Below are positions 2,008 through 29,992 of a stretch of DNA of 64,000 bases, piece by piece. The notes beneath the pieces are model-generated. The model worked only from the letters and a program-made list of their open reading frames with translations, was not told the origin of the DNA and made no database searches. The stretch's first letter is position 1, and every line of letters begins with the position of its first letter. The translations under genes were made by a program, and so were the position numbers. Origin of the DNA: a bacterium (lineage in GTDB: Bacteria; Patescibacteriota; Patescibacteriia; UBA10025); assembly GCA_021815445.1 (NCBI GenBank), contig JAKAGM010000002.1, positions 95,511 to 159,510 on the forward strand. The letters are read 5' to 3'.

Positions 2008-2038
<31 letters not shown>

Positions 2039-2225: not shown

Positions 2226-2256
<31 letters not shown>

Positions 2257-2852: not shown

Positions 2853-3156
2853 CCAGCACCACTTTCAGTTGCCAAGCGAATGTTGTATACGTCGATACAA
2901 TTCTTGCTTAGCTCTGCCATGTTGTTTCAATCTACGTTCCCGAAGTATGGCGTCTTGTTTATTGCCATACTGTTCGCAATAGACAAGCTGCCACGCGCCT
3001 GATTGACGGTTCGTTGACGTTTGATTGCCGCTGTTATGTTCCTGCAATCGTCGGTCAAGATTGTGTGTCAGGCCTATATATAACTCCTTACTTACTGAGT
3101 GTCTAATGACGTAGATGTTCCACATAGTATTTGCTCCTTAAACTGAAAGTGGTGCT
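2853..3156 (-). mobile_element. Insertion within 23S (helix 63 variable region): 18-bp inverted repeat stem enclosing a GIY-YIG ORF
   Basis: ccagcaccactttcagtt (2853-2870) and aactgaaagtggtgctgg (3139-3156) are perfect inverted repeats. Flanking sequence aligns to E. coli 23S about 1690 and about 1770, so the insert replaces a variable helix. Confidence 0.55.
2865..3125 (-). CDS. stand-alone GIY-YIG nuclease domain protein (86 aa, YhbQ/Slx1-URI-like) encoded inside 23S insertion
   Basis: N-terminus YVIRHSVSKELYIGLTHNLDRRLQEHNSG matches the GIY-(x10)-YIG...R...E...N signature. The ORF exactly fills the loop of the 18-bp stem. Confidence 0.6.
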   Translation of the reverse strand: MWNIYVIRHSVSKELYIGLTHNLDRRLQEHNSGNQTSTNRQSGAWQLVYCEQYGNKQDAILRERRLKQHGRAKQELYRRIQHSLGN

Positions 3157-4385
3157 GGAGGGCCATGTACCGAAGGTACGGCCGTTGTTTTGCCGAGTTC
3201 CTAAACGAGGGTTCTCTCGTACACCTTAGGCTTCTCGCCTCACCCACCTGTGTCGGTTTCCGGTACGGGTACTACACTGATAATGTCTTCAATCTTTTTC
3301 TAGGCACCACATTTTCGCAAATTGGTATTGCCTTGCGACGCCACCTTTTGCCATCCCCAGCTTTCGCTGAAAACAGCAACGCGCATAACCAGAACACGCC
3401 CGCAATAGCTTGATGCGTCAGAAAGAAGACTCAATGCAGTAGTGCTGGAATATTAACCAGCTGTCCATCGGCTACGCATGTTAAGCCTCACCTTAGGACC
3501 GACTAACCCTGGGTCGATTTGCGTTGCCCAGGAAACCTTGGGTTTTCGGTGGACGGGGTTCTCACCCGTCTTTTTGCTACTTATGCCAACATTCTCACTT
3601 CGAAGCGCTCCACCGCCTCTTGTCGAGACGACTTCATGGCACTTCGAACGCTCCTCTACCACTATCTCGATTCCGAAGAACCGAGATAATTCCCACGATC
3701 GGTACGAAACTTAGCCCCGGTACATTTTTGGTGCACAGAAGCTTGACTAGTGAGCTGTTACGCTTTCTTTAAAGGATGGCTGCTTCTAAGCCAACCTCCT
3801 AGTTGTCAGGACTTCTACACTGCCTTTTACACTTAGTTTCGATTTAGGGACCTTACGTTGGGATCTGGGCTGTTTCCCTTTTGACCGGTGAAGCTTTGAC
3901 CCCACGGTCTGACTCCCCAGATAGTCTGCATCGGCATTCGGAGTTTGGTTTAGTAAAGTAGGCTTACGCCATCTTCACCAATTCAGTGCTCTACCACCGA
4001 TGCGTAGTTACTGGAGGCTAGCCCTCAAGCTATTTCGAGGAGAACCAGCTATCGCCGAGCTCGATTGGAATTTCTCCGCTATCCACGGGTCATCCCCGCG
4101 TGTTGTACGGCGCGTGGGTTCGGACCTCCCCCGCCTTTTACGGCGGGTTCATCCTGCCCATGGATAGGTCGCACGGCTTCGGGTCTTGTCGACAGAATCA
4201 AGGCGCGCTATTAACGCTCGCTTTCACTGTGGCTATTCCCTTCTCGGGCTTCACCAAACTCTGTCGAACAAACTCGTTGGCTCATTCTTCAATAGGCACG
4301 CCGTCACCCGGCTTGCGCCGAGCTCCGACTCCTTGTAAGTATATGGTTTCAGATACTTTTCATCCCCCTCACCGGGGTGCTTTTT

Positions 4386-4416
<31 letters not shown>

Positions 4417-5317
4417 ATCACAAAACGTATTTAGCCTTGGGACGATAGTCGTCCCTGCTTCCCATAAAATTTCACGTGTTTCATGGTACTCGAGAGAAAT
4501 CATCGTAGCTCCCAATCCGTTTCGCTTACGGGACTGTCACCCTCTGTGGTAGAGCTTTCCAGCTCCTTCTGCTACGGACTGAAGAGTGCCTTCACCACCC
4601 CAGCTTGCGCCGGGACGGATAAGGAACTCCCTCTAGGTCTGCTACCTCGAATCTACAGGATTCGAACATAATTTCCTCATCAACGCCCTCTTTCATTGGG
4701 CCTGCACCCATATCCTGCATTGCTGCAGGAAGAGAAGAGAGTTTTGGCTGTTCCCCTTTCGCTCGCCACTACTTAGGGAATGGGCCAAATCACACATTGA
4801 TACCCTGTCTTTCGACAGGAGATCAAACGTGCAATCTGACATTTGTTTCTTTTCCTCTGGCTACTAAGATGTTTCAATTCACCAGGTAGTCTTCACTGTG
4901 CCTATGAATTCAGCACAGGATGGCTGGCTCTTCGCCAGTCGGGTTTCCCCATTCGGACATCTCCGGATCAAAGGTTGGTTGCCACCTCCCCGAAGCTTAT
5001 CGCAGGCTCCTACGTCCTTCATCGTCGTTTTGTGTCAAGGCATCCACCATATACCCTTAAACGAGTATTTAACCGTAATCGCAAATGATACGGTTCTTAC
5101 TATTTGATGCTCATCACTTATGTTACCTCTACTACTACATATTCAGTTGTTAACGTTCATTCCTTGAGCAGAAGTAGAAAGATGAAACTGTTTTCATGCT
5201 TCTATTTCGGTTCTAGGGTTGGAAAGGGCACTCCTTTACCTACAGGACCCTTCGACTTCGCCCCGTGTGACTGTGGGGCTCCGCTCAGGGCAACTCGCTG
5301 ACGCTCGTTGAGTATGA

Positions 5318-7376: not shown

Positions 7377-7492
7377 TATTAAAGTATTTTTGCAAACTTA
7401 CTTTTTCCACGGTAGCCAGAATTATTCTCGTTCTACATTACACTTGGATTTAGACTGTGGAAGGTTTGATAGCCAGCTGGTAGGATATAGTC

Positions 7493-8143
7493 ATGGGCTA
7501 CTTTTCATCCAAGACAGGCAAACCGAGCGCAGCAGCAATCAAAACGCTGCAAAGTCGAGACCCGGTGATGCGCAAGCTCATACACCGCGTGGGCATTTTT
7601 GAAATACCGCGTTCGGCAAGAACATTCCGGACGCTGGCTGAGTCGATTATGTACCAGCAGCTGTCAGGCAAAGCTGCCGCGACGATTATATCCCGTTGGA
7701 GAAAATTGTGGCCAAAGACTTCATTCCCGTCACCACAGCAGGTTTTGCACATGCGGGCTTCGCGCATGAAGAAGGTCGGGGTTTCCCGGCAGAAAATCAG
7801 TTACCTTAAAGATCTTTCACGGAAGACATTGTCCGGCTACGTTGCTATAAAAACACTCAGCAGTCTCAATGACGAGGCGGTGATCCAGCACCTTGTTGCC
7901 GTAAAGGGGATTGGCCGGTGGACGGCGGAAATGTTCCTTATGTTCGCGCTGGGCCGCCATGACGTGTTTCCTGTCGATGACATGGGTATTCAGAAAGCAA
8001 TTGTCCGTGCCTACGGCCTGCGTTCCAAACCCAGCAAAGATAGGATGCAAAAGATGGCCGAGCGATGGCGGCCGTATCGGACGCTTGCCAGCTTATATCT
8101 TTGGAGAAGCGTGGATCAAACCCCGTTAGAAAAAGTAGAGTAA
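7493..8143 (+). CDS. HhH-GPD family DNA glycosylase (AlkA / endonuclease III-like)
   Basis: Helix-hairpin-helix plus Gly/Pro-Asp motif: LVAVKGIGRWTAEMFLMFALGRHDVFPVDD. Confidence 0.75.
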   Translation: MGYFSSKTGKPSAAAIKTLQSRDPVMRKLIHRVGIFEIPRSARTFRTLAESIMYQQLSGKAAATIISRWRKLWPKTSFPSPQQVLHMRASRMKKVGVSRQKISYLKDLSRKTLSGYVAIKTLSSLNDEAVIQHLVAVKGIGRWTAEMFLMFALGRHDVFPVDDMGIQKAIVRAYGLRSKPSKDRMQKMAERWRPYRTLASLYLWRSVDQTPLEKVE

Positions 8144-8328: not shown

Positions 8329-8544
8329 ATGTCAATAACAACGGTAGTGGCCTGTACTTCCACGAATCGGAATCATACCAGCCGCGGTCCCTTTTGCGGA
8401 TTCTGCGGGATCAAAAAAGAAGGGGAGCCTGATTCTGAGATCACATGCGATCCATTGAATCACGAACGCCTGCCGCGGGTATTCGAATTTTGCCCGCGAT
8501 GCGGACTCCCCAAATCCAGACTCACCTTTGCGCCGGTTAGGTAA
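8329..8544 (+). CDS. small zinc-ribbon protein (71 aa)
   Basis: CGFCG ... CPRCG two CxxC pairs; GGGAGG RBS; followed directly by an intrinsic terminator. Confidence 0.45.
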   Translation: MSITTVVACTSTNRNHTSRGPFCGFCGIKKEGEPDSEITCDPLNHERLPRVFEFCPRCGLPKSRLTFAPVR

Positions 8545-8718: not shown

Positions 8719-10239
8719 TTGGGTGCAGAAAAGCTCTTTACCAAGTTGGAGGCATTAATTCGGCCCTCGGCAGCCGACAGTTATGCCGCCAGTATCACAG
8801 AGTGGTTCGACAAGACTTATGGCGCCACCTGTGAAGCCGCGTCAGCTGAACGCGGTGAAATCGCCGGGCATTTGCGGGCACGATCGCACGACGGCTTCAT
8901 TACGGAAGAGGTCGGCTCATGCCTTGACGCGTTGATGGAGGTCATTGACGATCTGCCTCCGGATCGCGCTGCGTGGGTGCGCAAGCTGGTGGACACCTAC
9001 AAAAGAGAGCGCGCGTTGACCGGTGAATTCATCCAGCGCAAAACGGGAGTAACGACTGCCGCACGTCGCGCATGGGCTGCTGCACGTGCGGAGTCAAACT
9101 TCTCACTCTTTGCCTCCTCCCTGCGGGAGGCGGTCAGCATCATGCGCGAGGAAGCTCAAATGCGCGGTGCCGGCGATCGCAGAGACGACATATACGGCGT
9201 ACTCGTCAATCTATGGGAACCCGGCTTTCCGATGGATCGTCTCGCGGTAATTTTTGACGGAATGCGGGACTTCACTGTACCGCTGCTCCAGCGGATCCGT
9301 GACACTGGAATCAAACCGAACACGTCGTTTCTCGACGGTCGTTTCGATCCGCGTGATCTTCTGCCACTCTCCCTGACGTTGATGCGCACCTTGGGCTTTG
9401 ACATGTCACGGGGGGGTCTCGACGAAACAACGCACCCATTCTGTTCCCGCGTGACACCGTCGGACGTTCGCTCTATGACGCGGTTTACCGAGGGTTTCCG
9501 AAGTTGGTTCTTCGGCATCGTCCATGAGATAGGGCACGCGCTCTATGAGCAGGGTGCGTGCGGTGTCAGTGACTGGATGTCGCCGGACGGTGTGCAGGTG
9601 TCACTCAGTATTCACGAATCTCAGTCACGCACGTGGGAAAACTTCGTCGGCCGCGGATCGTCCTTTTGGGAGTATTTCTACCCGATTCTGTGCAGCCATC
9701 TGCCGCAGTTTGTGGATGTGCCGCTCGACGAGTTTCTCCGGGCAACCAATGCTGTGACGCCGGGCTGTATCCGTACGAATGCCGACGAGGTGACGTACAA
9801 CCTCCACATCATCATTCGCTTCGAACTTGAACGGGCACTCTTCAACGGGGATATCAGCGTCGACGATCTGCCCTCTGAGTTCAATGATCGTATGGATCGA
9901 TACCTCGGCATCAGGCCGCCCAACGCGGCCCAGGGAATCCTCCAGGACATCCAGTGGTCAATCGGCTACTTCGGGTATTTCCCGACGTATACCCTGGGCA
10001 ATCTGTTCATGGCGCAGGTGGCCGAACGTTTCGCCGCGGAAAATCGCTACTATGTCAATGAGTTCCGCACTGGGAACTTCGGCATCCTCCTCGAATATCT
10101 TCGGGAAATGGTCCACAAGACCGGCTACACCGACGACATCGACGGGGCGCTCAGGCGGATTACCGGATCTCCGCTTGATCCGGGATACTGGCGCCGCTAT
10201 ATCATGTCGCGCGTCGGGCCGGTGTACGGGCTCAGCTGA
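8719..10239 (+). CDS. M32 family carboxypeptidase (carboxypeptidase Taq-like zinc metallopeptidase)
   Basis: HEIGHALYE (HEXXH), IHESQSRTWEN and GYFPTYTLGNLFMAQ motifs typical of peptidase M32. Probable TTG start 7 nt after AAGGGAGG. Confidence 0.8.
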   Translation: MGAEKLFTKLEALIRPSAADSYAASITEWFDKTYGATCEAASAERGEIAGHLRARSHDGFITEEVGSCLDALMEVIDDLPPDRAAWVRKLVDTYKRERALTGEFIQRKTGVTTAARRAWAAARAESNFSLFASSLREAVSIMREEAQMRGAGDRRDDIYGVLVNLWEPGFPMDRLAVIFDGMRDFTVPLLQRIRDTGIKPNTSFLDGRFDPRDLLPLSLTLMRTLGFDMSRGGLDETTHPFCSRVTPSDVRSMTRFTEGFRSWFFGIVHEIGHALYEQGACGVSDWMSPDGVQVSLSIHESQSRTWENFVGRGSSFWEYFYPILCSHLPQFVDVPLDEFLRATNAVTPGCIRTNADEVTYNLHIIIRFELERALFNGDISVDDLPSEFNDRMDRYLGIRPPNAAQGILQDIQWSIGYFGYFPTYTLGNLFMAQVAERFAAENRYYVNEFRTGNFGILLEYLREMVHKTGYTDDIDGALRRITGSPLDPGYWRRYIMSRVGPVYGLS

Positions 10240-17492: not shown

Positions 17493-19265
17493 CTATTGGA
17501 TTGCAATACTATAGAGTCCTTTATTTGTTCCAATGAAAAGTGTCTGAGAAGCATCGTGAAAAGAAATACCACTTATCACATCATTAGATCCAAGTTTCAC
17601 GGGTAAATTAATTTTATTCCAACTATCGCTGCTGTTTTTTGATACATACACATTATTGTCGAAATCCGTCGCGAAGATCATGCTTTCATTCGATCGACTC
17701 GCCGTTATTTGATATACATGGAATCCGGTATTTTTTATCACCCACGTCTTTCCCATATCTGCACTCCTAAAGAACCGATCAATCCCTGAAGCCGGGTTAA
17801 CTCCATACAGTAGGCCATTGGTCACAATCAAATCCGTCGGGACATACTGCTTTTTAGAGTCATCGCCTTGCAAGATAACATCCCATGTTTTCCCCCCATC
17901 AAGGGATTTATTCAAGTTATTACATACGGCATAAACAATATCTGGGTTCTTTTGGTCCACAACGATATTTGAATAAGAACATTGGTTCGCCTTATTATTA
18001 GCCGCTCCGAGGGATTCATAGACTTTATTCCAATTTTTGCCGCCATCTTGAGACTGGTACAGGTAATAATCAGTTTTTACACCATCATATCCACTGCCGG
18101 ATTTTTTCCAAGTTTCAAATTTTGTCGTCGCGTATGCTACTTTTCCAGTGCTACCCAAACTCAAATTTGTCGTTTGCAGTCCATCTATAATCACCGGCTG
18201 CCAATTTACCCCTCCATCCACACTTTCGATGATTGTATTAATATCCCACTCGCCAGAATCCTTTGGGGGTGTAAACATCCCCCCTACCGCGTAAAGATGG
18301 TCTGAATTATCGGGATCAATCACGAGGTTGTCAAAAGATAAATTCACTGGAACGTTATTAACATTTACTCTTTTCCAGTTCGCTCCGCTGTCGGTGCTTT
18401 TGTAGAGGCAATGGCCCTCTCGTATGCCGGCGTACATCAAAGCCGGCTTTACACGAGTAGTAAAAACAGACTGAGCACTCTCTCCTTCAAATGCGACAGT
18501 TGTCATTGAGACGCTCTCCGGGATGTCGCTACAGGTAGCAATGTCGGAAGCAACTTTCTCAAGCTGGTCAAGGTACACTAGAACATCTTCTTGAGAACTT
18601 ATGCTTTTCCAGGTAGCACCACTATCAGTAGTTCTATACAAACATCCATCGCCAAAGCCAGTCTGGGCGTACATCTCAGTTTGGGCTTTATCAACAGCTA
18701 GGACTGGGCCCAATTGGAAGTTGGCAGGTAACTGAGCGCTATTCAGCTGACTGCTATTAACCAAGGTAGGTAATCCACTGCATGTCGCGATCAGATTTTG
18801 CACTTCTAGAGTAGTCTCTTCTCTCATCTTAGCTGCAAAATCTGCCAATTCAGTTTCAGTGGCGTCCGGCTTGGTAAGCTTATATTTTTGAACATTTGCT
18901 GCAACATACTCCTCCAAAGTTATTTGTCCACTTTGAGTATTAACCGCCGGTGAGTTCGATATACTATTCTTTATACTATACGGAGTACTTTTTTTTGTGC
19001 CATTCCACCACCAGTAGAATCCTCCACCAGCCAAAATCAAAACTAACAATCCACAACCTAAGATTAATTTGTAATTATATTTCTTAACCTGGTTCTCCTG
19101 AAACATACCCAGAGCTGCATCAATTTCACCCATCTGCCAGCCGACTTGGGCTAAGGTTTTTCGTATCTCATCCTTGCCCACTCCTTGTTCCAAGGAGTTT
19201 TTAATGTAGCCTACTAGCTCTTGATTTGGCATAAAATAACGAGTTAATTTGTGAATGAATTTCAT
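17493..19265 (-). CDS. membrane-anchored BNR/Asp-box repeat (sialidase-like beta-propeller) protein
   Basis: At least six SxDxGxTW Asp-box repeats (TTDSGATWKS, STDSGANWKR, SVDGGVNWQP, SQDGGKNWNK, SLDGGKTWDV, SADMGKTWVI); N-terminal soluble domain followed by a TM helix. Confidence 0.75.
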   Translation of the reverse strand: MKFIHKLTRYFMPNQELVGYIKNSLEQGVGKDEIRKTLAQVGWQMGEIDAALGMFQENQVKKYNYKLILGCGLLVLILAGGGFYWWWNGTKKSTPYSIKNSISNSPAVNTQSGQITLEEYVAANVQKYKLTKPDATETELADFAAKMREETTLEVQNLIATCSGLPTLVNSSQLNSAQLPANFQLGPVLAVDKAQTEMYAQTGFGDGCLYRTTDSGATWKSISSQEDVLVYLDQLEKVASDIATCSDIPESVSMTTVAFEGESAQSVFTTRVKPALMYAGIREGHCLYKSTDSGANWKRVNVNNVPVNLSFDNLVIDPDNSDHLYAVGGMFTPPKDSGEWDINTIIESVDGGVNWQPVIIDGLQTTNLSLGSTGKVAYATTKFETWKKSGSGYDGVKTDYYLYQSQDGGKNWNKVYESLGAANNKANQCSYSNIVVDQKNPDIVYAVCNNLNKSLDGGKTWDVILQGDDSKKQYVPTDLIVTNGLLYGVNPASGIDRFFRSADMGKTWVIKNTGFHVYQITASRSNESMIFATDFDNNVYVSKNSSDSWNKINLPVKLGSNDVISGISFHDASQTLFIGTNKGLYSIAIQ

Positions 19266-19266
19266 A

Positions 19267-19338
19267 TGCCCTCGACAGGAATCGAACCTGTATCCCAGGC
19301 TTCGGAGGCCTGTGCACTATCCTTTGTGCTACGAGGAC
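19267..19338 (-). tRNA. tRNA-Arg (anticodon CCG)
   Basis: Manual cloverleaf fold: acceptor GTCCTCG/CGAGGGC, D stem GCAC/GTGC, anticodon stem CAGGC/GCCTG with loop CTCCGAA, T arm ACAGG-TTCGATT-CCTGT; no encoded CCA. Confidence 0.75.
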
Positions 19339-19595
19339 ATGCTAGATGGGTTGTCTACATACTGTCTAATAAATTCCTTCTTTACGGAGGAACTGCGCTT
19401 AATCTGATACTCTCGCCATCGTGCCTTTTCCCGTGTTGGATACTCTTCGAATCCAATCAGTTTCCATGGAACTTTCCGTTGTGTTGTCTGGACGTGCCCT
19501 TCATTGTGCCGGACTAACCTTGCCCGAATATTTCCCGTCTGCCCAATGTAGAAAGTGTTATCTTTCTGACTCTGAAGTAGGTATACGTAGTACAT
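19329..19595 (-). CDS. stand-alone GIY-YIG nuclease domain protein (88 aa) overlapping the 5' end of tRNA-Arg
   Basis: YYVYLLQSQKDNTFYIGQTGNIRARLVRHNEG = GIY-YIG signature; stop codon TAG lies inside the tRNA acceptor/D region (GTCCTCGTAGCAC). Confidence 0.65.
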   Translation of the reverse strand: MYYVYLLQSQKDNTFYIGQTGNIRARLVRHNEGHVQTTQRKVPWKLIGFEEYPTREKARWREYQIKRSSSVKKEFIRQYVDNPSSMSS

Positions 19596-19603: not shown

Positions 19604-19679
19604 GGCTTCGGCCTCCGGCCCAGAGGGCCGTACGGCCCGGAGGGAGGCCTGTGCACTATCCTTTGTGCTACGAGGACAG
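19604..19679 (-). repeat. Partial duplicate of tRNA-Arg 5' half (positions 1 to about 43) interrupted by a 33-nt GC-rich palindromic insert in the anticodon loop
   Basis: 35-nt exact repeat of 19305-19339 (ggaggcctgtgcactatcctttgtgctacgaggaca) plus ggcttc beyond a 33-nt insert containing the perfect palindrome GGGCCGTACGGCCC. Confidence 0.6.
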
Positions 19680-23116: not shown

Positions 23117-23152
23117 TATAGTAATAACTGCAACTCCTTCAAGTATTATTAT

Positions 23153-23258
23153 CTCCCCAAGTCGGGCTAAAGGAGAGAGTCATCGGGTAATATCGCAAAA
23201 GCGAAACTGCCTGATGTATTTAGCCCGGCTTGTGGAGACAAATCCCTTTTTCACATCA
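23153..23258 (-). repeat. Structured about 105-nt element, copy 1 (paralog of 26430-26537)
   Basis: Minus strand: GAAAAAGGGATTTGTCTCC...CCGACTTGGGGAG with closing helix TCTCC/GGAGA, CAAG/CTTG and inner stem GCCGGGCTA/TAGCCCG. Copy 2 has the inner stem replaced by GCCGGACCAG/CTGGTCCG (covariation). Confidence 0.55.
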
Positions 23259-23272
23259 TCAAATAGTTCGAT

Positions 23273-23316
23273 GGGGTGGAAAAGAGAGAGGAGGCCTTGG
23301 TTGTGCGAACCAAGGC
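23273..23316 (-). terminator. Terminator-like hairpin with conserved loop GTTCGCACAA followed by CCTCTCTCTTTTCC (family member i)
   Basis: Minus strand ccttgg-ttcgcacaa-ccaagg then pyrimidine/T tract; immediately 3' of the radical-SAM gene. Confidence 0.5.
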
Positions 23317-23373
23317 TTTTTATCCGGCATGCGCCAGATAATGGGCCCTCCTCTGATTGACCTGGAAAAAGAA

Positions 23374-24615
23374 CTACTCAATCACCCTTTCCCAACCGTC
23401 CGGAAGAGAAAGCAGGTGATTCGTTGCATAGAATCGTAGGTCGCCCAAGGTCGGAGCAAGGCGATGGTTATTGAACAGTACAGAAGTTTGAAACTCCGTA
23501 CCCACCGTCATGGCCACATCCTCCGTGGCCACCTCCTCTGCCGGGAGCTGGACGAAATATCCATCCGCAGTCTCCCGGACACCGAGGGGATGAAAGCCCA
23601 GCCAGCGAAGATATTTGCCGATTTTTTCAGGATCGGCTTTCCCCCACTGGCCGAGCTCGTCTGTGCGCGGTCGGTTGTTCCGGTTGTACGGGACGGGCAT
23701 ACCAAATTCGTCTCGATACAAAGTGCCAGTGTGGCGATGCACACGGACACCACATTCCGCCGCGGTGGCCAGAATTGCCCTCTCAACCTCGGGAGCGAGC
23801 CAGTTTTTCATCCGGTAGTACGAATGCCCTGCCGGGTGTGCTTTCTCGTCTTGGCCGCCGTCGAGAAAACCTAACCTGCGAAGCTGGTCGTCTTCGGGCG
23901 CCACGCCGAAGTTTCCAACCGAACAGCCCCGATAGGTCAAGAACTGAATCCCGAGCTCGGCGAGCTCACGGATCAGCCGAACCCCCGCTTCGATGTTATT
24001 CGAGTTGAGAGGACCAAGCATCACCGAGATCCGACCGGCGGGGATACCAGCAGAGAACACCCGTTTTAGGCCAGCCATTTGCGCGGGCGGCTTAACGGGA
24101 CTCCCTTCGAACTCGGGGCAGGAGGGGGTAATCGTCGTGCAGAAAATCGCGCGGCGATCCGGCCCCCACTCCTTTATTTGGCGCCAGCCGAACGGCGCCC
24201 GGTGCAGGATAAACACTGGATTTCCATGCGGAAAAATCCGCAGGAACTCGGTGATCTCCGGCACCTGCATGGAGCCGTCGCTCCGGGCGCAGAGCATGAC
24301 GATGTCACGCTCCGGCTTGAACAGGCGACTCTGGTCCAGCCATTGGATCATCTCCTCCGGGGTGCAAATCCGGCGCAAGCCCTTCTGCCCTGTGCCGATG
24401 GTATCAACAGAATTGTTGATCCACCGGTAGTAGCAGAAGGAGCACCCGATCGTGCATCCCATAACGAGATCACCGTCCCAGGTGTAACGCCGCTTGTAAA
24501 ACGGTGCCGGGGCTACCGGGACGCTCTTCCAGCCGGGCGGCGTGCCACCAAGCAGAAGGTGTTCTCCATTAACAATTGCCGCATCTCGGGCGGCGGAAAG
24601 TTCATCAAAACCCAT
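23374..24615 (-). CDS. radical SAM enzyme (CxxxCxFC cluster motif; SplB/COG1533-like or ThiH/MqnC-like)
   Basis: GCTIGCSFCYY = C-x3-C-x2-C with aromatic residues, about 60 aa from N-terminus; 413 aa; high-GC codon usage. Confidence 0.65.
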   Translation of the reverse strand: MGFDELSAARDAAIVNGEHLLLGGTPPGWKSVPVAPAPFYKRRYTWDGDLVMGCTIGCSFCYYRWINNSVDTIGTGQKGLRRICTPEEMIQWLDQSRLFKPERDIVMLCARSDGSMQVPEITEFLRIFPHGNPVFILHRAPFGWRQIKEWGPDRRAIFCTTITPSCPEFEGSPVKPPAQMAGLKRVFSAGIPAGRISVMLGPLNSNNIEAGVRLIRELAELGIQFLTYRGCSVGNFGVAPEDDQLRRLGFLDGGQDEKAHPAGHSYYRMKNWLAPEVERAILATAAECGVRVHRHTGTLYRDEFGMPVPYNRNNRPRTDELGQWGKADPEKIGKYLRWLGFHPLGVRETADGYFVQLPAEEVATEDVAMTVGTEFQTSVLFNNHRLAPTLGDLRFYATNHLLSLPDGWERVIE

Positions 24616-25346
24616 TATACCTCCTTCCGCCCTAAAATGGGGGCGATTTTGGTCTTAAGTTCACGGCCTCGGCGAATTGCCTCTTCAGCGGATACGCCAT
24701 ACGCTCGCATGTAAGTCAGCCGGTCGAGTTTCTCGTCAGAGTTCTCGACACGGCCATCCTTGCCATGCAGAGCAGAAAGGCCGTCATCCAACATCTGGGC
24801 GGCTATGCCGTCCAGCCGTGCCGCCTCGCAAACTTGAGGCGGACAGCCAAGTGCCGCGGCAATAAACAGCCGAAAGGCGCTTTCTTTTTGCACTACACGC
24901 CACCAAGTTATTGTCGGCTCGAGTAGCGCATAGCCGGGATTTTCCAGCTCAACCTCCAAACGCGCGCCCTCAATTACCTCACGCAAGCGCTGTTCAAAGA
25001 GGAGTAGGATTTCCAACCGTGCGGCGATCTGGCGGGCTTGGGCAATATCCCATGCCGCCTGCTCAATCGCCGCCGCTCCGCTCCGAGTGAACCAGAAAGC
25101 CGGTGATCCGTCACGGACGGTATCCTCGTCAATGAGGTCGTCCATGACTTTAAACGCCCGGCGCAGGTGCTCCACCTGGCTGCACAAGAGGTCAACCTCT
25201 GTGGCAGTACGCGTGCCAAGCCGAGCCAAAGCCCGAACTTTTTTCGCATAACTGCCGGAGGTGACAACTTTTTCTATAAATCGCGGCGTCTGGAAACTAC
25301 GCTGATAAAACTGTTCCAGTGCCGCGAGTTTTTCACGCCAGTTCAT
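24615..25346 (-). CDS. isoprenyl diphosphate synthase-like protein (class I terpenoid synthase fold; short, divergent second Asp motif)
   Basis: VMDDLIDEDTVRDGSPA matches first aspartate-rich motif DDxxD-x4-RRG-xP of trans-prenyltransferases; stop overlaps start of radical-SAM gene. Confidence 0.5.
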   Translation of the reverse strand: MNWREKLAALEQFYQRSFQTPRFIEKVVTSGSYAKKVRALARLGTRTATEVDLLCSQVEHLRRAFKVMDDLIDEDTVRDGSPAFWFTRSGAAAIEQAAWDIAQARQIAARLEILLLFEQRLREVIEGARLEVELENPGYALLEPTITWWRVVQKESAFRLFIAAALGCPPQVCEAARLDGIAAQMLDDGLSALHGKDGRVENSDEKLDRLTYMRAYGVSAEEAIRRGRELKTKIAPILGRKEV

Positions 25347-26394
25347 CGAGCACCTCCGTTTGGAAGCCTATCGATTCACTGATGTACCGACACTGCCCAC
25401 TAACCATCTCCCGCGTCTGCTCCAGCGAACTGGAAACAAACAGCCAGGAGAAAAGCTCGTGAATGCCGGCGATGAAGTCCATACCGAAGTTAACTCGGCA
25501 TGTATGAGCCAGTCCGTCATAAACAACGCTGTTACCCGTGGTTTTCACCACAAAGTCAGCGAAGTCCATGACATCTAGGGCGCCCATGTCGCGCAGCAGC
25601 TCCTGTCGCCTGGCATCTTGCCAGTCATCAAAGTCGCCGCGCTTAAGACATTCCGCCTGTCGTTCGGTTTCATCCCTCTCCACCCGAACGACAATCGCGG
25701 GTCGGCGAGTGGCGTAGGAAGCATAAATGATTTGCTCCCGCCGCTTGATCCCGTCAACCACAGCAAATGTGGCCGGGTCCTGGCGGATTCCTGATTGCTC
25801 AAGAAACCGCCGTGCCACCGCTATCCGGTCCCTCGACTCCACCTCATTGGTGAATCGCTGAACCAGACTCCAGCTGTTTTCCGAAGTCATCGAGCCAAAA
25901 TTCGACTCGATTATCCCCTGGGCATACTCTCCCCACTTATAGCAAGAGAAATACGGAAGACTAGAAAATATCTTCCGCAACATCGTCTTGCCGCTGGCAG
26001 GGAGCCCCACCAGGCACACCATATACTTATTCAAAGTATATGGCTCACTGGGGAGATCGGGACGAGTTTTTGTAAACAACCCCTCCCTTCCCAGTAAATA
26101 GTGCTGGTGAAGATACGCCAATCGTGTCATGGTATTTCCGGCGTAATGAACCGGCCCCTCGACCCCCATGCCCTGCAACGCCAGCTCAACTTTGCGTTGA
26201 GTGAGCGCCGTGGTGACATTTTGGTCAAGGATCACAATCTCGTCGTACCGACGCCGGTGCGGGAGATTCCAAAACTCCACTCCGCGCTGGTCCAACCGCG
26301 AATGGTCGCTGATGACCACCTCCCACTCGCGTGGAAGAAGGTCAAGCAGTGCCACTCCTGATTTGGCTATAAGAATAGCCAAAATATTTTTCAC
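25333..26394 (-). CDS. two-domain P-loop kinase (N-terminal unknown domain plus polynucleotide-kinase/AAA_33-like kinase domain)
   Basis: Walker A CLVGLPASGKT; probable GTG start (VKNILAIL) 6 nt after AAAGGAGG; overlaps next gene by 14 nt. Confidence 0.55.
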   Translation of the reverse strand: MKNILAILIAKSGVALLDLLPREWEVVISDHSRLDQRGVEFWNLPHRRRYDEIVILDQNVTTALTQRKVELALQGMGVEGPVHYAGNTMTRLAYLHQHYLLGREGLFTKTRPDLPSEPYTLNKYMVCLVGLPASGKTMLRKIFSSLPYFSCYKWGEYAQGIIESNFGSMTSENSWSLVQRFTNEVESRDRIAVARRFLEQSGIRQDPATFAVVDGIKRREQIIYASYATRRPAIVVRVERDETERQAECLKRGDFDDWQDARRQELLRDMGALDVMDFADFVVKTTGNSVVYDGLAHTCRVNFGMDFIAGIHELFSWLFVSSSLEQTREMVSGQCRYISESIGFQTEVLDELA

Positions 26395-26429
26395 GCATTC
26401 CTCCTTTTTGCTTTTTGTCTTTGTCTTTT

Positions 26430-26537
26430 CTCTCCCCAAGTCGGACCAGTGGAGAGAGTGCTTCGTCTGACATTTAGTAATATCAGAAGAAGCGTCTGGT
26501 CCGGCTTTGGAAGACAAATCCCTTTTTCAACAATAAA
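26430..26537 (-). repeat. Structured about 105-nt element, copy 2 (immediately upstream of kinase gene RBS)
   Basis: See 23153-23258. Confidence 0.55.
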
Positions 26538-26587
26538 TAAACATGTGGGTAGTCGAGGCTTTTATGCCTTGGCAGTTATTTAATGTT

Positions 26588-26636
26588 AGAAAAGAGAGGG
26601 AAGCCGCCGCGATTGTGCGAACCACAGCGGCTTCCC
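26588..26636 (-). terminator. Hairpin family member ii (loop GTTCGCACAA, tail CCTCTCTTTTCT)
   Basis: Minus strand ggaagccgctgtg-gttcgcacaa-tcgcggcggcttcc. Confidence 0.5.
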
Positions 26637-26657
26637 GGAAAGTGCAGTCAAGTAGAC

Positions 26658-27002
26658 TTACGCCTCCTTGACCTCCGCGGCGGAGATCACATCTCCGACC
26701 GCGTAGTCACCACCGTGCGAGGAGGCGACGATGTAGGCCACCATCTTCGGATCGAAGACGGCGACCATTCCGAACCGGTGGACCAAGTGATGCGTCAGCA
26801 CCGCAACCACCGGCAGGGTGGCGGGCCCGTTGACCAGCGCCAGCTGGCCACCGAGCTCGCCCGCTTCGAGCTCGACCATCCGGGACTCCGCGTCCTGGAC
26901 GATCGCATTGTTCTTGGCCGGGTCGCCAAACCCGACCGTGAACAATGTAACAGGTTTCCCTGCGACGGAAACCTGTGATGTTTCAATCTTGTAAGTCGCC
27001 AT
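26658..27002 (-). CDS. hypothetical protein (114 aa)
   Basis: Start MATYKIETSQ after GAAGGGAGGG RBS; no motif assigned. Confidence 0.45.
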   Translation of the reverse strand: MATYKIETSQVSVAGKPVTLFTVGFGDPAKNNAIVQDAESRMVELEAGELGGQLALVNGPATLPVVAVLTHHLVHRFGMVAVFDPKMVAYIVASSHGGDYAVGDVISAAEVKEA

Positions 27003-27138
27003 TTTCCCTCCCTTCGAGAGGTAGCCCTTCTCACCAGCCAAAGCATGGCTACTTTAGCAAGGGCGGCCTTATTTTTCAGGCCTGGTTTGAATTTGAACCA
27101 ACCGCACCGGTGAGGCACGCGGTCAGTATGTTATTTAT

Positions 27139-27726
27139 TTACTTTTTTTCCTCGAGAGCAACTTGTTCCACGAGGAATTGGGCGAGTGCGGCCACGCATG
27201 GCCGCTGAGAAACATCCTCACCTCTTTCGAGGTAGTGAACGCTCCCCTTAAAGACTCCATCCTCGCCTACGCCTTGGACGGAGTCCTCCTGACCGTGGTA
27301 GTCCGAGAAAATCTCGGCTACCACTTTTATCCCAAGCTCTGTGCAAAACGCGCGCCACTCGGAAACCCGGCTCAAGTCGCCCGCCAGAATGACGGCGTGA
27401 GTCGCGGCGGCGCAAATCTTTTTATTCTCTGCACTGGGAATACCGCCAATATCCACCAGCGTCATGGGGAGTGTGCAGCTGGCGACCGAGTCGGCCACCC
27501 TCTCCACAAACAGTGGCGTGAACTTGGTCTTATAGGCCGCCTTGCACGCCGCCGCCAAGGCAGGATCTGCCTCAACGGTCTCCTGGAACCATGCGCCCTC
27601 CCCATCCGGACACGCGGTGATCACATATGGATACGGCGATCCAGGAATGCGCCGCACCGCCCGCTTGAGTCCTTCCCTCAAACAGGATTTGCCGGACCGT
27701 GGTGGTCCGCAGAGCACGATTTTCAT
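27139..27726 (-). CDS. small P-loop NTPase (195 aa; CobU/MobB-like architecture)
   Basis: Walker A LCGPPRSGKS at residues 6-15; Walker B-like hhhD (TLVDIGG). Confidence 0.5.
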   Translation of the reverse strand: MKIVLCGPPRSGKSCLREGLKRAVRRIPGSPYPYVITACPDGEGAWFQETVEADPALAAACKAAYKTKFTPLFVERVADSVASCTLPMTLVDIGGIPSAENKKICAAATHAVILAGDLSRVSEWRAFCTELGIKVVAEIFSDYHGQEDSVQGVGEDGVFKGSVHYLERGEDVSQRPCVAALAQFLVEQVALEEKK

Positions 27727-27799
27727 CGCCACTCCTTTCCTGCTTGGGAACGCCCAAGCTTGTTTTCTCCGCATCCAACTCACAAACCATTTGCGAGCT

Positions 27800-27848
27800 G
27801 GAAAAGAGAGGGAAGGTTCATAAGTTGTGCAAACTTATCATCCTTCCC
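27800..27848 (-). terminator. Hairpin family member iii (loop GTTTGCACAA, tail CCTCTCTTTTCC)
   Basis: Minus strand ggaaggatgataag-tttgcacaa-cttatgaaccttcc. Confidence 0.5.
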
Positions 27849-27995
27849 TTAAGTGCAAGCATTATGGGCTCAGACCACCCTTATAAGATGCCGGCCATCC
27901 GGACATCCACTTAAGGTAGCTTTCCCATTCAGGCATCTGCCAATGCCGCCCGATATTTCCCTCGATGCCAGGTTTTAGGGGAGAAGTCAGCAGTC

Positions 27996-28421
27996 CTAGG
28001 ACTGCTGAAAAATCTTGATCTCCACCCGCATGTATGTGACATACACGCGAAACTGACGAAATTTTTCCGCCAGTTTGGAGGCAAGATCTTCCACCATCAG
28101 CTTCCACTCCTCGTCGGATTCGCCCGAATACAATGGGCTTTTGTCCGCGAAGAGGGTCAGCGACGGCTCATCCTCGGCGTGCACGCCACCTTTACTCGGG
28201 TAAGCGTACACCAGCACCGTCTCCTGAATCCCGACCGGAATGTAATTCCGTCCGGCTTTAAGAGCGGCCCGGTATTCCTCCTTAAGAAAAGCGACTACCG
28301 CCGCCTTCTCTTGGAGAAATCCTTCGTAGCCCTGCTTCAGGCCAAGATTGATCTCGGCCCGCAGGGTGGAGGATGCCTCTCCTTTACGATCGCCCTCTTG
28401 GGCAATCGCATACTTTGCCAT
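27996..28421 (-). CDS. hypothetical protein (141 aa)
   Basis: GGAAGGAGG RBS; no motif assigned. Confidence 0.45.
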   Translation of the reverse strand: MAKYAIAQEGDRKGEASSTLRAEINLGLKQGYEGFLQEKAAVVAFLKEEYRAALKAGRNYIPVGIQETVLVYAYPSKGGVHAEDEPSLTLFADKSPLYSGESDEEWKLMVEDLASKLAEKFRQFRVYVTYMRVEIKIFQQS

Positions 28422-28527
28422 AATTTCACCTCCTTCCGGCTGGTTTATGGCTCGACCGTCGCACCGCGTCGTCCGGTTTGTGGGTATTTTCCACTTTCAG
28501 CTAGCAAATTATTTCTACGGGCTGAAA

Positions 28528-28566
28528 AAAACTAGGAACCGACGAAAAGCAAAACTGCCGGTTCCC
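28528..28566 (-). terminator. intrinsic terminator after exonuclease gene
   Basis: Minus strand ggaaccg-gcagttttgcttttcgt-cggttcc followed by tagttttttt. Confidence 0.5.
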
Positions 28567-28573
28567 AAAAAAG

Positions 28574-29128
28574 CTACATTTGTCCGAGTTGCTTGAGCGC
28601 TTTGATCGCGCACAAGCCGCTCACCCACGCATCATAGCGCGGGTCATGCTTCCGGCGCTGATCCGCTGGAATGTTTACCCAGTCCTCACCGTGAATCTGG
28701 TGAGGGACCAGGCCGCACGCCAGCTGTAAGCTGGCGCAGTCTATTAGCGGGAACGGGCCTTTGAACTCCCGTTCCTTGAAGTCATCCCGCTGGCAAGCCA
28801 GCAGGAAACCCGCTTCAACTGGATAGCCGTTGTCGGCTATCACGATCAGGCGGCCTTCCTTCTCGGCCGCCTTGTCCCTCTGGGTCTGAAGCCAAGCCCA
28901 GAAGGTGTCACGGAGTTCCCGGCCGTTGCCGAAATTCTCCGTGATCTGCATCCCTGGCAGCACGTTCTGTGCAACCCAGGGATCAACCGGGCCCTCAATC
29001 GGGCACCGGCCGACGAATTCAGAGAGCACATTGCCCTCCGAATCCATTGTAATAGCTCCCACGGCAAACGCAGCGCCGAGGAGCGAGTTGGTCTCGCAGT
29101 CAAACACAATAATGTTTTCTACCTTCAT
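28574..29128 (-). CDS. DEDD-family 3'-5' exonuclease (DnaQ/RNase T-like)
   Basis: Exo I motif IIVFDCETNSL; size and later acidic/His residues consistent with DEDDh. Confidence 0.65.
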   Translation of the reverse strand: MKVENIIVFDCETNSLLGAAFAVGAITMDSEGNVLSEFVGRCPIEGPVDPWVAQNVLPGMQITENFGNGRELRDTFWAWLQTQRDKAAEKEGRLIVIADNGYPVEAGFLLACQRDDFKEREFKGPFPLIDCASLQLACGLVPHQIHGEDWVNIPADQRRKHDPRYDAWVSGLCAIKALKQLGQM

Positions 29129-29417: not shown

Positions 29418-29565
29418 CTCCGAAAGAGCGTAGAGAAGAGACAGATGCGACCTTTCAATTGAATATGATTATGAGGTCGTCTGCTTCTCTCTCCTCTCTA
29501 CGCGCTTTAGGTGATACCAATAAAAAGGGACTCTGCTCGTTAACTGCGAGAGAGTCCCTTTTATT
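29418..29565. repeat. Long imperfect inverted repeat (about 30-bp arms) plus adjacent perfect 12-bp palindrome aaaagggactct/agagtccctttt in an 850-nt AT-rich intergenic region
   Basis: gagcgtagagaagagacagatgcgacct ... aggtcgtctgcttctctctcctctctacgcgct; palindrome 29523-29565. Confidence 0.4.
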
Positions 29566-29992
29566 GATCCAAGGTCATATCGTGAATAATTACTATAGCT
29601 CTTCGGCAGTTTTCACCGCCGCGTTCACCGTTCCCACTGTTTGAGCGGGGGAAGGTGCTCTCTCCATGCCCGCCCCGATTGCTATGAAGGGCGGCGCATA
29701 TCATTGATTCAATTTTCAAAGTTCGCTCGCTTCTCAGGTAACCATTTCTAGCGTAACGAGAGATTATATACCTAAAACAGAAACATGTCAATGCTTTTCG
29801 TCAAAAAATTACCAATATTATCAAAGTATAATGACTCCAACTATATTTTTATATGTCTGCTAAACTATGTTTGTCACTTTACGTTGACAAAGCTTACTAC
29901 CTATGATATACTTGATGTGGAAACAGATGTTTTGAGACGATCCAGAAAGTACAAGTGATAAATAGGTTATCCACAGGGTATAGACAATAAAA

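Follow-up and report, generated by a model that had tools for sequence, protein, structure and literature searches.

The window, the 64-kb stretch of DNA analysed here, derives from an uncultured Patescibacteria-like bacterium and carries a Csx3-AAA gene island on its minus strand (Table 1). The AAA-Csx3 gene pair is common in Patescibacteria, the AAA partner having 1135 homologues (about 70% identical), and a variable island is built around the pair. The cargo that follows the Csx3-like gene is, in the window, a kinase-prenyl-radical SAM trio conserved in 64 homologous loci, in which the AAA_18 kinase-like gene has a GTG start at 26394, whereas contig L063 carries genes of 154 and 183 aa in this place.

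The promoter at 29791-29763 is the only strong one on the minus strand. It is followed by a noncoding RNA that shares conserved blocks with L063 and whose terminator (29561-29521) has a loop unrelated to that of the hairpins described below. From 29763 down to 23374 the minus strand showed no further sigma70-like promoter; expression of the distal modules therefore depends on read-through, and four terminator-like structures separate the one strong promoter from these genes. Gene calls covering ~21 kb around the island include no recombinase or integrase domain.

Table 1. Genes, hairpins and other elements of the Csx3-AAA island, ordered along the minus strand
Feature	Position	Strand	Description
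Strong promoter and noncoding RNA	29521..29791	-	RNA of ~240 nt with GGAGAGAGCACCUUCC; canonical terminator at its end
Probable fourth, divergent copy	28495..28568	-	12-bp hairpin, loop GUUUUGCUUUUCG, U7 run, then H2
Hairpin A copy (iii)	27810..27848	-	17 stacked positions with two interruptions; loop UGCAC; AAA gene downstream
H2 (iii)	27766..27809	-	UCUCU paired with GGAGA, plus 13-bp apical stem; z-score -6.4
Hairpin H3	27742..27759	-	directly ahead of the Shine-Dalgarno sequence of the AAA gene
P-loop AAA partner of Csx3	27139..27726	-	195 aa; PADLOC Csx3-AAA, 6e-60
Csx3-like protein	26658..27002	-	114 aa; Pfam PF09620, 1.2e-6; PADLOC Csx3-AAA, 1.8e-15
Hairpin A copy (ii)	26598..26636	-	17-bp stem; loop CGCAC; stop of Csx3-like gene 21 nt upstream
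H2 (ii)	26519..26597	-	tail pairs with GAAAAAGGG, the lead of B, enclosing a longer insert; z-score -5.3
B element copy (ii)	26427..26518	-	-42.7 kcal/mol, z-score -5.3; its end ~30 nt upstream of the AAA_18 kinase-like GTG start
Cargo module	23374..26394	-	AAA_18 kinase-like, polyprenyl-synthase-like and radical SAM genes; copies (ii) and (i) on either side
Hairpin A copy (i)	23294..23316	-	9-bp stem; loop CGCAC; stop of radical SAM gene 58 nt upstream
H2 (i)	23243..23287	-	tail UCUCUUUU pairs with AAAAGGGA around a covarying apical stem; A+H2 z-score -3.4
B element copy (i)	23149..23241	-	covarying long hairpin of ~95 nt, CUCUCUCC unpaired; -42.8 kcal/mol, z-score -4.5

Hairpin A and its homologues

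Three minus-strand hairpins (hairpin A) that a first-pass annotation had recorded in the island are all present, with predicted fold energies of -18, -31.5 and -21.4 kcal/mol for copies (i), (ii) and (iii), and z-scores of -6.1 for copy (ii) and -3.3 for copy (iii). Each loop is 5 nt long because the flanking UU and AA pair, and the bases of the stems read GGGAAG/CTTCCC, GCCTTGG/CCAAGGC and AGAGGAGA/TCTCCTCT. The combined pattern GCACAA-N10-16-CTCTCTTTTC is observed three times versus 0.00 expected (100 shuffles); neither the loop 9-mer alone nor the tail 11-mer alone exceeds chance frequency. Across the three copies we found no conserved reading frame of the kind expected for a small ORF or peptide repeat: the frame through the loop is TGG TTC GCA CAA in copies (i) and (ii) versus AGT TTG CAC AAC in copy (iii), and the tail frames differ between copies (i) and (ii).

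A covariance model (R1) trained on copies (ii) and (iii) only finds the untrained copy (i) at E=4.9e-5 and three copies in other contigs at E of about 1e-5 to 1e-6, and model R2 finds the untrained copy L063c at E=3.1e-7. In a six-copy structural alignment, itself fitted to the model, 93.4% of the cells are paired and compensatory changes occur in 11 of 17 pairs; slid controls pair at 36-55%, and this level of pairing and covariation is equalled in 0/500 shuffles. These figures bear out the earlier view that the stems covary, that the structure is under selection and that the loop is conserved.

Three further metagenomic contigs with the same AAA-Csx3 pair have homologous copies at the corresponding gene ends; the two products of the pair are the only proteins common to all contigs carrying hairpin A. 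Conservation in related genomes, the absence of which had been named beforehand as a refutation, is seen in L063, in L064/L065 and, distantly, in L066, always 3' of genes and in gene orientation. The family as sampled here comes from only four genomes and numbers about 12 copies, comprising seven close ones, the tentative fourth copy of the window and four marginal copies in L066 (E=0.008-0.19); all 12, in the four clear window/L063/L064 loci and in L066, lie 9-147 nt 3' of a gene in the same orientation. The original count of three was therefore too low, given the probable divergent fourth copy in the window and the homologues in three contigs. This fourth copy (28568-28495) follows the exonuclease-like gene, and we treat its membership as tentative because model R2 gives no detection at E<5.

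The loops of hairpin A read CGCAC, UGCAC, ACGCAC or UCGCAC. Their core is kept in six of the seven close copies and appears in variant form in L066, with stems that are unrelated in sequence; the 10-mer first described as invariant is so within the window's genome, but across genomes only YGCA(C) is kept. A GCACUU(U) box lies upstream of the stem in window copies (ii) and (iii), L063a and L066c (4-5/12 copies overall), and the frequency of its 8-mer in the window is at chance. Boundary sequences are homologous between the window and L063, and the homology takes in about 50 nt preceding copy (i) and L063c.

Island specificity holds in part: with model R2 the 64-kb window gave no copy beyond the three of the island, and 14 unrelated control loci gave no hit with E below about 0.04, but other genomes also have the family. 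Scanning genome, metagenome and viral collections for the exact pattern returned zero additional members. Rfam 15 gave no match over the window at gathering thresholds, and at E<=5 the sole overlapping match between 22000 and 30100 was Ms_IGR-8 (17.3 bits versus a gathering score of 44). The hairpins are an uncatalogued, lineage-restricted family of intercistronic RNA structures, and their restriction to the islands, conservation in relatives and sense orientation 3' of genes argue for a function in RNA.

Hairpin H2 and adjoining elements

The post-stem sequence is UCUCUUUUC, with four consecutive U, in window copies (i)-(iii), L064 and L063c, and UCUCAUUUC in L063a; in five of the seven close copies the first post-stem bases are UCUCU, with only four U in a row. 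Uninterrupted runs are found in L063b (U6) and in the fourth window copy (U7), and L066a also belongs to this U6-U7 class. The 'CCTCTCTTTTC tail' of the first-pass annotation is thus no single-stranded terminator tail; it is predicted to form the lower stem of a second conserved hairpin, H2.

In 7/7 close copies the CU-rich tail is the predicted 5' strand of H2, which abuts hairpin A (spacing of 0-1 nt in most), and the unit is therefore a tandem hairpin; z-scores range from -3.4 to -8.3 across these copies. For six of the seven, the predicted H2 helix comprises 17-20 pairs and is interrupted by a bulge or internal loop. Its lower stem, formed by the tail and a downstream purine run, has little covariation support because its sequence is conserved, while the apical stem covaries at four of eight pairs. 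Copy (ii) has an insert of 79 nt, against ~45 nt in most of the others, and the H2 loops vary between copies. The H2 of the fourth window copy can be aligned with the others. Since the tail's conserved downstream complement matters only in read-through RNA, hairpin A is not a simple transcript end. One A+H2 unit ends each module, these being the exonuclease-like gene, the 141-aa gene, AAA-Csx3 and kinase-prenyl-radical SAM.

At copy (i), the conserved 5' lead GAAAAAGGGAUUUG of the B element (23252-23239) overlaps the 3' strand of H2. The B elements were also picked up as repeat families D3 and D4, and H3 is present in L064 and L063 too.

Possible functions of the A+H2 unit

Sister islands with the same kinase-prenyl-radical SAM core end their genes with an H-type pseudoknot, in which the P1 and pseudoknot helices covary, in place of the long hairpin A. 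The pseudoknot is followed by a U-run (L001 at 11262, three times in L003, and L008), by a type III hammerhead in which the CU tail serves as stem III (L001 at about 4600, L007 at about 1795, and L003, where RF00008 matches with 31.2 bits, E=5.5e-4) or directly by a tRNA (L006 at 3081). U-run, hammerhead and tRNA are three independent routes to a 3' end just after a structured cap. Like hairpin A, these elements end each gene or module beside the same AAA/Csx3 and kinase-prenyl-radical SAM genes, and in them too a purine-rich strand on the 5' side pairs with a CU-rich one on the 3' side, and a CU- or U-rich tail is present; unlike in the A+H2 units, what forms the 3' end can be recognised there as a U-run, hammerhead or tRNA. 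Sequence homology to hairpin A was not detectable in the 3' elements of L001, L003, L006, L007 and L008, the islands from which the hammerhead and tRNA analogy is drawn.

Because the sister islands have a pseudoknot with U-run, hammerhead or tRNA at equivalent positions, the reading of the A+H2 unit that we favour is an RNA-level boundary element that would define and cap the 3' ends of the module mRNAs, with the loop as the recognition site of a factor; we give this reading a probability of about 0.45. Transcription of the island would start at the one strong upstream promoter, and at each unit there may be either leaky termination at the interrupted U-tract or a cut within or next to H2, whose predicted helix is irregular and about 17-20 bp long. 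After either event the mRNA of the upstream module would end in hairpin A, as a stable cap, and the downstream module would be freed; the conserved loop would be recognised by a trans-acting factor. A simple exonuclease block would leave the loop unexplained, since such a block needs no conserved loop, and the stems span 9-17 bp. Of the functions first suggested, processing or attenuation is the one that the comparative context favours, in the form of an RNA 3'-end processing or attenuation boundary, although sequence alone cannot choose among functions; no island-encoded binding factor was identified for the proposed factor site, and the proposed attC-like recombination site failed the core-site test.

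Ordinary termination could suffice, because the fourth window copy, L063b and L066a have real U6-U7 runs. It is less likely that the hairpins are ordinary intrinsic terminators or leaky attenuators of shared ancestry, their similar loops and tails a lineage habit and H2 an incidental, chance pairing of pyrimidine-rich with purine-rich (Shine-Dalgarno-like) stretches, as CU/GA-rich low-complexity sequence pairs easily by chance. Like intrinsic terminators, hairpin A is a stable GC-containing stem-loop (-18 to -31.5 kcal/mol) at a gene 3' end, 9-147 nt after the stop codon in all copies, with a T-rich stretch after it, and a consensus terminator scan called copy (ii) terminator-like. Its loop, however, is conserved across paralogues and genomes despite unrelated stems, the U-tract is interrupted in most copies, and this tract is the 5' strand of a second hairpin that is predicted in every copy and covaries in its upper stem. 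Moreover, the noncoding RNA of the same island ends in a canonical terminator, and efficient termination at the hairpins would silence the distal modules, for which no promoter was detected. A regulatory site for a protein or RNA, recognised through the loop and sometimes the upstream GCACUU box, that controls read-through (antitermination or attenuation, nut/boxB-like) or serves as a translational operator, appears doubtful. Loop-specific recognition classically shows as an unpaired loop that is conserved while its stem varies, the leader RNA is conserved, and four terminator-like structures precede the distal genes; against this, the box is missing from most copies, the stems far exceed boxB, the copies lie after genes and away from the promoter, no candidate RNA-binding protein was found besides the shared AAA-Csx3 pair, and no complementary partner covarying with the loop was found.

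We consider it improbable that the units act in DNA as cassette-exchange boundaries, that is, as recombination sites like integron attC or REP folded in single-stranded DNA. One unit per module end, homologous boundaries around the differing cargo of the window and L063, a serine recombinase adjoining the L001 island, direct repeats of about 100 nt flanking the L066 island and Y1 transposases in L064 and L004 all fit such exchange, but homologous recombination between conserved noncoding RNA elements explains it equally well, and the L064 Y1_Tnp carries its own IS200-type terminal hairpins. Furthermore, the attC core sites (RYYYAAC/GTTRRRY) are absent from the stem bases, the conserved part is the loop, the reverse of attC, roughly 21 kb around the island were called without an annotated integrase, and all copies are sense to the genes and accompanied by the RNA-only features H2, B and the Shine-Dalgarno-proximal H3. 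Very improbable, finally, is a new small self-cleaving ribozyme formed by A+H2 in place of the hammerheads of related islands, an idea suggested by L001, L003 and L007, where the corresponding intergenic positions are taken by type III hammerheads that use the CU tail for stem III, and by novel ribozyme classes that were reportedly found earlier by looking near hammerhead-associated genes. The unit has very few conserved unpaired nucleotides for a catalytic core, the length of its H2 insert varies widely, and no Rfam ribozyme matched it at E<=5.

Comparison with known systems

Several known elements were compared with the family. Integron attC sites, like the A units, are imperfect inverted repeats with a variable middle at the 3' end of an exchangeable cassette; they conserve the outer R''/R' core sites and extrahelical bases and need IntI, whereas the stem bases of hairpin A fit no such core and its loop is conserved instead. 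REP/BIME elements are likewise repeated extragenic hairpins after genes, able to stabilise the upstream mRNA. REPs are dispersed over the whole genome and number tens to hundreds, their stem and a 5' GTAG are conserved, and a RAYT transposase accompanies them; hairpin A has 3-4 copies in one island (only three island copies in 64 kb by model R2), with the loop rather than the stem conserved. Lambda-type nut sites (boxA and boxB) have stems of about 5 bp and a GNRA-like pentaloop, versus 9-17 bp and YGCAC here, where the GCACUU box is at chance frequency in a minority of copies and the sites lie after genes, not near the promoter. The ANTAR two-hairpin target requires hexaloops with A1 and G4, which the four loop forms of hairpin A and the variable loops of H2 do not provide.

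Two further systems make 3' ends by cleavage. The early region of phage T7 is transcribed as one long RNA with RNase III sites, related and repeated irregular hairpins of ~20 bp, between the cistrons, and cutting there gives the mRNA upstream a 3' hairpin that protects it. H2 as modelled would resemble these sites in being an irregular intercistronic helix of about two turns (17-20 bp), though in a Patescibacteria-like chromosomal island rather than a phage; nothing in T7 matches the conserved apical loop of hairpin A, whose stems moreover vary from 9 to 17 bp. As a functional analogy only, the histone mRNA stem-loop is a 3'-terminal hairpin with a conserved loop bound by a dedicated protein (SLBP), and its 3' end arises when the transcript is cut shortly beyond the hairpin, with an adjacent element as guide. 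For hairpin A a binding protein or guide RNA would be purely hypothetical, and the histone system is eukaryotic, with a fixed 6-bp stem.

Structure and covariation of the tandem hairpins

The three minus-strand hairpins of the island (hairpin A) were confirmed by reading the sequence, and the loop-plus-tail combination that unites them occurs three times in the window versus not once in 100 shuffles; neither the loop motif nor the tail motif alone is above chance there. Predicted folding retains the hairpins of the first-pass annotation but reduces their loop to a pentaloop (CGCAC, CGCAC, and UGCAC), since UU and AA pair and close it. The conservation claimed for the loop holds for YGCA(C), which is constant across all copies, but for nothing else in it. 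A small ORF or peptide-coding repeat was excluded, as the copies do not read the loop and tail in one common frame.

The covariance-model search proposed in that annotation supports a family: a model trained on copies (ii) and (iii) only (R1) recovers copy (i) at E=4.9e-5, with nothing further significant in the window beyond it and the training copies, and scores copies L063a, L064, and L063b on other contigs at 4e-6 to 1e-5. A six-copy model (R2) recovers the untrained copy L063c at 3e-7 and the L066 copies at 0.008–0.19, the best chance match among 14 unrelated control loci being about 0.04. R2 has no further matches in the window, in line with the proposed restriction to the island. The stems do differ in sequence while remaining paired, as had been claimed: in the six-copy alignment, which was fitted to the covariance model, 93.4% of cells pair and compensatory changes occur in 11 of 17 pairs. 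None of 500 shuffles reaches this level of covariation, and slid controls pair at 36–55%. A MAFFT alignment of 11 copies was inconsistent with the structure, so a model-guided alignment was used.

The CU-rich tail is conserved, as described, but is not free: when each of the seven close copies is folded with its downstream sequence, the tail is predicted to form the 5' strand of another hairpin, H2 (z-scores -3.4 to -8.3). H2 begins 0–1 nt past hairpin A in most copies. Its lower stem pairs UCUCU(UUU) with GGAGA or with the AAAAGRG run opening the downstream B element, a pairing that rests mainly on energy because the lower stem is conserved in sequence; the apical stem (7–13 bp) varies between copies, with compensatory changes at 4/8 pairs (RNAalifold). 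The L066 copies likewise have an adjacent second hairpin. A fourth unit, after the exonuclease-like gene, consists of a 12-bp hairpin whose loop contains UUUUGCU, a U7 run, and an H2 alignable with the others; it is only a probable family member because R2 fails to detect it.

In copies (i), (ii), L063b, and L063c, H2 is followed by the B element, a hairpin of about 95–130 nt whose inner helices covary and in which a conserved CUCUCUCC is unpaired but could alternatively pair with a 3' GGGGAGAG. It precedes a gene in three of four cases, a canonical terminator coming next in L063c, and has no match in Rfam. The B element may be a riboswitch-like or sRNA-target element. In copy (iii) and L064, what comes after H2 is a short hairpin (H3) and then the AAA gene's Shine-Dalgarno sequence.

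Island organization and distribution of the family

The window is bacterial DNA, with a 23S rRNA gene, a 5S rRNA gene, two tRNAs, and an S-box riboswitch, and its island region is identical to contig DAIENG010000002.1 of GCA_027341205.1. The nearest named protein homologues belong to Minisyncoccales, Magasanikbacteria, and 'Patescibacteria group' MAGs, from which we infer a Patescibacteria-like host. The 23S rRNA gene is 3405 nt long versus a 2925-nt model (about 480 nt of insertions) and has its own promoter, with no 16S gene upstream within the window; such insertions and such an arrangement are typical of CPR bacteria.

A perfect TTGACA-17-TATAAT is the only sigma70-like promoter on the minus strand between 29.8 and 23.4 kb, so distal modules would be reached by read-through or from promoters missed by the scan. 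This predicted promoter would drive a conserved leader noncoding RNA, which carries GGAGAGAGCACCUUCC and has a canonical terminator at its end; its GGAGAGAG run is complementary to the unpaired B loop and partly to the CU tails. The remaining 400–1400 nt of the leader hold further conserved blocks, for example CCAAGUGCGCUCCCUCAU...GUGGGGGUUGCAGUUGG.

Coordinates of genes and noncoding features in the window and in loci on other contigs
Feature	Locus	Position	Strand	Remark
23S rRNA gene	window	1669-5073		
23S promoter	window	about 5485-5455		
36-nt direct repeat	window	19304-19339, 19643-19678		
tRNA gene	window	19267-19338		
sigma70-like promoter	window	29791-29763	minus	
Leader noncoding RNA	window	29521-29791	minus	
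Leader noncoding RNA	L063	about 4640-4872		
Leader noncoding RNA	L066	about 9445-9530		
DEDD-exonuclease-like gene	window	28574-29128	minus	
Fourth unit	window	28568-28495		
141-aa protein gene	window	27996-28421	minus	
Small AU-loop hairpin	window	27872-27896	minus	
Small AU-loop hairpin	L007	741-765		
Small AU-loop hairpin	L003	about 670-700		
P-loop AAA protein gene	window	27139-27726	minus	PADLOC 'Csx3-AAA' 6e-60
AAA-to-Csx3 region	window	27042-27138	minus	
AAA-to-Csx3 region	L063	6504-6635		
AAA-to-Csx3 region	L064	1408-1540		
Csx3-like protein gene	window	26658-27002	minus	PADLOC 'Csx3-AAA' 1.8e-15
B element	window	26427-26528, 23149-23252	minus	
B element	L063	7772-7865, 8516-8604		
AAA_18 kinase-like gene	window	25333-26394	minus	
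Polyprenyl-synthase-like gene	window	24615-25346	minus	
Radical SAM gene	window	23374-24615	minus	
Pseudoknot	L001	11262-11314, about 4563-4600		
Pseudoknot	L003	about 160-225, 603-668, 1235-1298		
Pseudoknot	L006	3014-3080		
Pseudoknot	L007	689-739, 1751-1802		
Pseudoknot	L008	1726-1775		
Type III hammerhead	L001	about 4600-4660, 7447-7500		
Type III hammerhead	L003	2455-2509		
Type III hammerhead	L007	1-30, 1795-1842		
AGAyTTATATCTTTAG-loop hairpin	L001	about 4085, 6020, 8170		
AGAyTTATATCTTTAG-loop hairpin	L003	about 290, 735, 1480, 3195		
Direct repeats	L066	about 8040-8140, 8425-8540, 19225-19330		about 100 nt
IS200/IS605-type element	L064	1-590		

The AAA protein has 1135 homologues, the 120 best-scoring at about 68–87% identity, and no relatives were found in viral contigs. 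The AAA-Csx3 pair is among the more conserved accessory genes of Patescibacteria, in which we know of no function for it. Radical SAM relatives (64 proteins) keep the kinase-prenyl-radical SAM trio and lack hairpin A; relatives reached via the AAA protein do carry it. These are L063 (AAA 84% identical, syntenic with the window), where Csx3, a 154-aa gene, and a 183-aa gene are each followed by one of three copies; L064/L065 (87%), with one copy upstream of the AAA gene, equivalent in position to copy (iii); and L066 (74%), whose four distant copies come one after Csx3 and the others after three unrelated genes, with the loops CAAUGCAACU, CUUGCACU, UUGCACU, and UUUACUA. The family is thus far known from four genomes only. 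All copies counted, in the four clear window/L063/L064 loci and in L066, lie 3' of a gene in sense orientation, and no proteins other than the AAA-Csx3 pair are shared by all contigs that bear the hairpin. The window and L063 carry different cargo, whereas the boundary sequences are homologous, including about 50 nt upstream of copy (i) and L063c despite unrelated preceding genes; the modules were exchanged between conserved noncoding boundaries.

Hairpin A has no Rfam match at gathering thresholds or at E<=5. The exact loop-plus-tail pattern was also sought in GTDB species genomes, JGI metagenomes, and viral contigs, collections scanned evidently without the source genome. None of the 46 GTDB matches folds like the family or is multi-copy (a single conserved Pelagibacter site accounts for 36, and the other ten or so are scattered, against about 15 expected by a back-of-envelope estimate), and none of the three metagenome matches or the one viral match is a hairpin. 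The Pelagibacter site, CAGTTTGCACAATGATAACTwCCCTCTCTCTTTTCA, is conserved in 36 species genomes (among loci L009-L054, Pelagibacteraceae), is not hairpin-forming, and is unrelated to hairpin A. We found no description in the literature of the motif or of Csx3 in Patescibacteria.

Sister-island elements and a possible role in 3'-end formation

In five related islands with the kinase-prenyl-radical SAM core (L001, L003, L006, L007, and L008), gene ends carry an H-type pseudoknot, unlike hairpin A, and blastn found no significant similarity between window intergenic regions and the sister-island loci. A purine-rich hairpin loop (AGGAGA-like) pairs with a downstream CU-rich strand (UCUCCU-like) across an A-rich linker, AwAUCAAAAA. 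Both P1 and the pseudoknot helix covary between copies (AGGAGAU/AUCUCCU, AAGAGAUU/AAUCUCUU, and GGAAAG/CUUUCC), and the element belongs to no Rfam family. Next comes a U6-U7 run, a type III hammerhead, or the first base of a tRNA, which are three unrelated ways of making an RNA 3' end immediately past a structured element. The hammerheads are intergenic and have intact cores, with scores under the gathering threshold; the one in L003 reaches 31.2 bits (E=5.5e-4, RF00008) with a perfect core. Two directly follow a pseudoknot, whose CU tail is the 5' strand of hammerhead stem III (L001 about 4600, L007 about 1795). In L006, tRNA-Cys begins at 3081, immediately past CCUCCCAAAAAA, an order that recalls the MALAT1/mascRNA arrangement. 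A literature search on hammerhead gene associations returned nothing relevant.

As the simplest account of these observations, we propose, with a probability of roughly 0.45, that hairpin A and H2 form this lineage's module-end RNA element, marking the mRNA end of the upstream module. Transcription would end leakily at the interrupted U-tract, or the transcript would be cleaved inside H2 or close by; the size and irregularity of H2 are those of an RNase III-type substrate. Hairpin A would be left behind as a protective 3' cap. We hypothesize that a trans factor might recognize the YGCAC loop; no complementary sequence covarying with the loop was found.

The gene-end position and U-rich members would also fit plain related terminators, but the conserved loop, H2, and the need for read-through count against them. 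Moreover, the conserved downstream partner of the tail implies that the read-through RNA is also under selection, which argues against a pure terminator, and we consider this reading rather unlikely. A loop-specific regulatory site, nut-like or operator-like, would account for the conserved loop and for the many terminator-like structures downstream of one promoter; it is improbable, given the long stems, the location of the sites behind genes, and an upstream GCACUU box that is not consistently present.

Cassette-like exchange and mobile-element traces near sister islands could instead point to a DNA-level recombination site. However, there are no attC core sites, conservation runs opposite to that in attC, and the surrounding features make sense only in RNA, leaving this option still less probable. 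Least probable of all is a new self-cleaving ribozyme, suggested only by the hammerheads at equivalent sites, as the conserved unpaired bases are too few. There is also a small chance, comparable to that of the regulatory site, that the tandem hairpin is an autonomous 3'-end device, self-cleaving or recruiting AAA-Csx3 via its loop. If so, it would be functionally interchangeable with the hammerhead- and tRNA-punctuated pseudoknot caps and would parallel, in bacteria, the dedicated 3'-end systems exemplified by the histone stem-loop/SLBP and by the MALAT1 triple helix, in which a tRNA-like signal directs cleavage.

Several other ideas were discarded. A boxA/nut reading failed, as the GCACUU box is not consistently present and is no more frequent than chance, and the 23S leader has no matching boxA. 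As judged by eye only, mimicry of a tRNA T-arm or of the tRNA-Cys anticodon loop is contradicted by position 37 and A58, loop-loop kissing via UGCA is impossible for CGCAC loops, and loop pairing with H2 or the leader GUGCG shows no covariation.

Hairpin A and H2 belong in kind with intercistronic and 3'-end stem-loops such as terminators, RNase III sites, and REPs. What is new within that kind is that the loop is conserved, a second hairpin is obligatory, and occurrence is limited to AAA-Csx3 islands, together with the parallel to ribozyme- and tRNA-punctuated sister elements. Their structure and distribution are solid, while their function is what we infer. To our knowledge, almost nothing is known of how Patescibacteria (CPR) transcripts are organized and processed. 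Here, covarying intercistronic structures close every cargo module, and in sister islands their place is taken by pseudoknots with hammerheads or tRNAs behind them; together they offer a concrete model of modular mRNA 3'-end formation in these bacteria. The locus holds an unusual wealth of uncatalogued RNA motifs (hairpin A with H2, the B element, the pseudoknot cap, and the leader sRNA), and if the loop is a handle for an island-encoded factor, a CRISPR-ancillary protein family would be linked to RNA 3'-end recognition.

Further noncoding features and mobile-element traces

The AAA-to-Csx3 intergenic region is nearly identical across genomes; its sequence, GGCCUGAAAAAyAAGGCC GCCCUUGCyAAAGUAGyCAUGCUUUGGCUGGUGAGA, folds into two or three hairpins and may be a leader or regulatory RNA for Csx3. 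A small hairpin with an AU-rich loop (GGCCGGCAUcUUAuAAgGGUGGUCU) lies upstream of copy (iii) in the window, where a 24-codon ORF (MPEWESYLKWMSGWPASYKGGLSP) overlaps it, and downstream of the pseudoknot in sister islands. Another hairpin family in the sister islands, with the conserved loop ..AGAyTTATATCTTTAG.., occurs just upstream of start codons.

The L066 island adjoins ruvB/ruvC and, by eye only, is flanked by direct repeats (gaaaaatgaaaagtgaaaaatgaaaaataacaatctaaaatctaaaattaaaag...); the window island adjoins ruvA. These neighbors and repeats suggest that the locus is mobile or a hot spot. The window also contains a perfect direct repeat of 36 nt, with an 88-aa ORF between the copies; one copy is the 5' part of a tRNA gene, and the arrangement looks like an integration footprint at that tRNA. 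In L004/L005 a Y1_Tnp gene lies inside the island. In L064, the insertion directly upstream of hairpin A is an element made up of a Y1_Tnp fragment with CCACCGGC...GCCGGTGG-type hairpins on either side; a link between this transposase type (IS200/Y1) and hairpin A was rejected, as the element brings terminal hairpins of its own and resembles an unrelated insertion.
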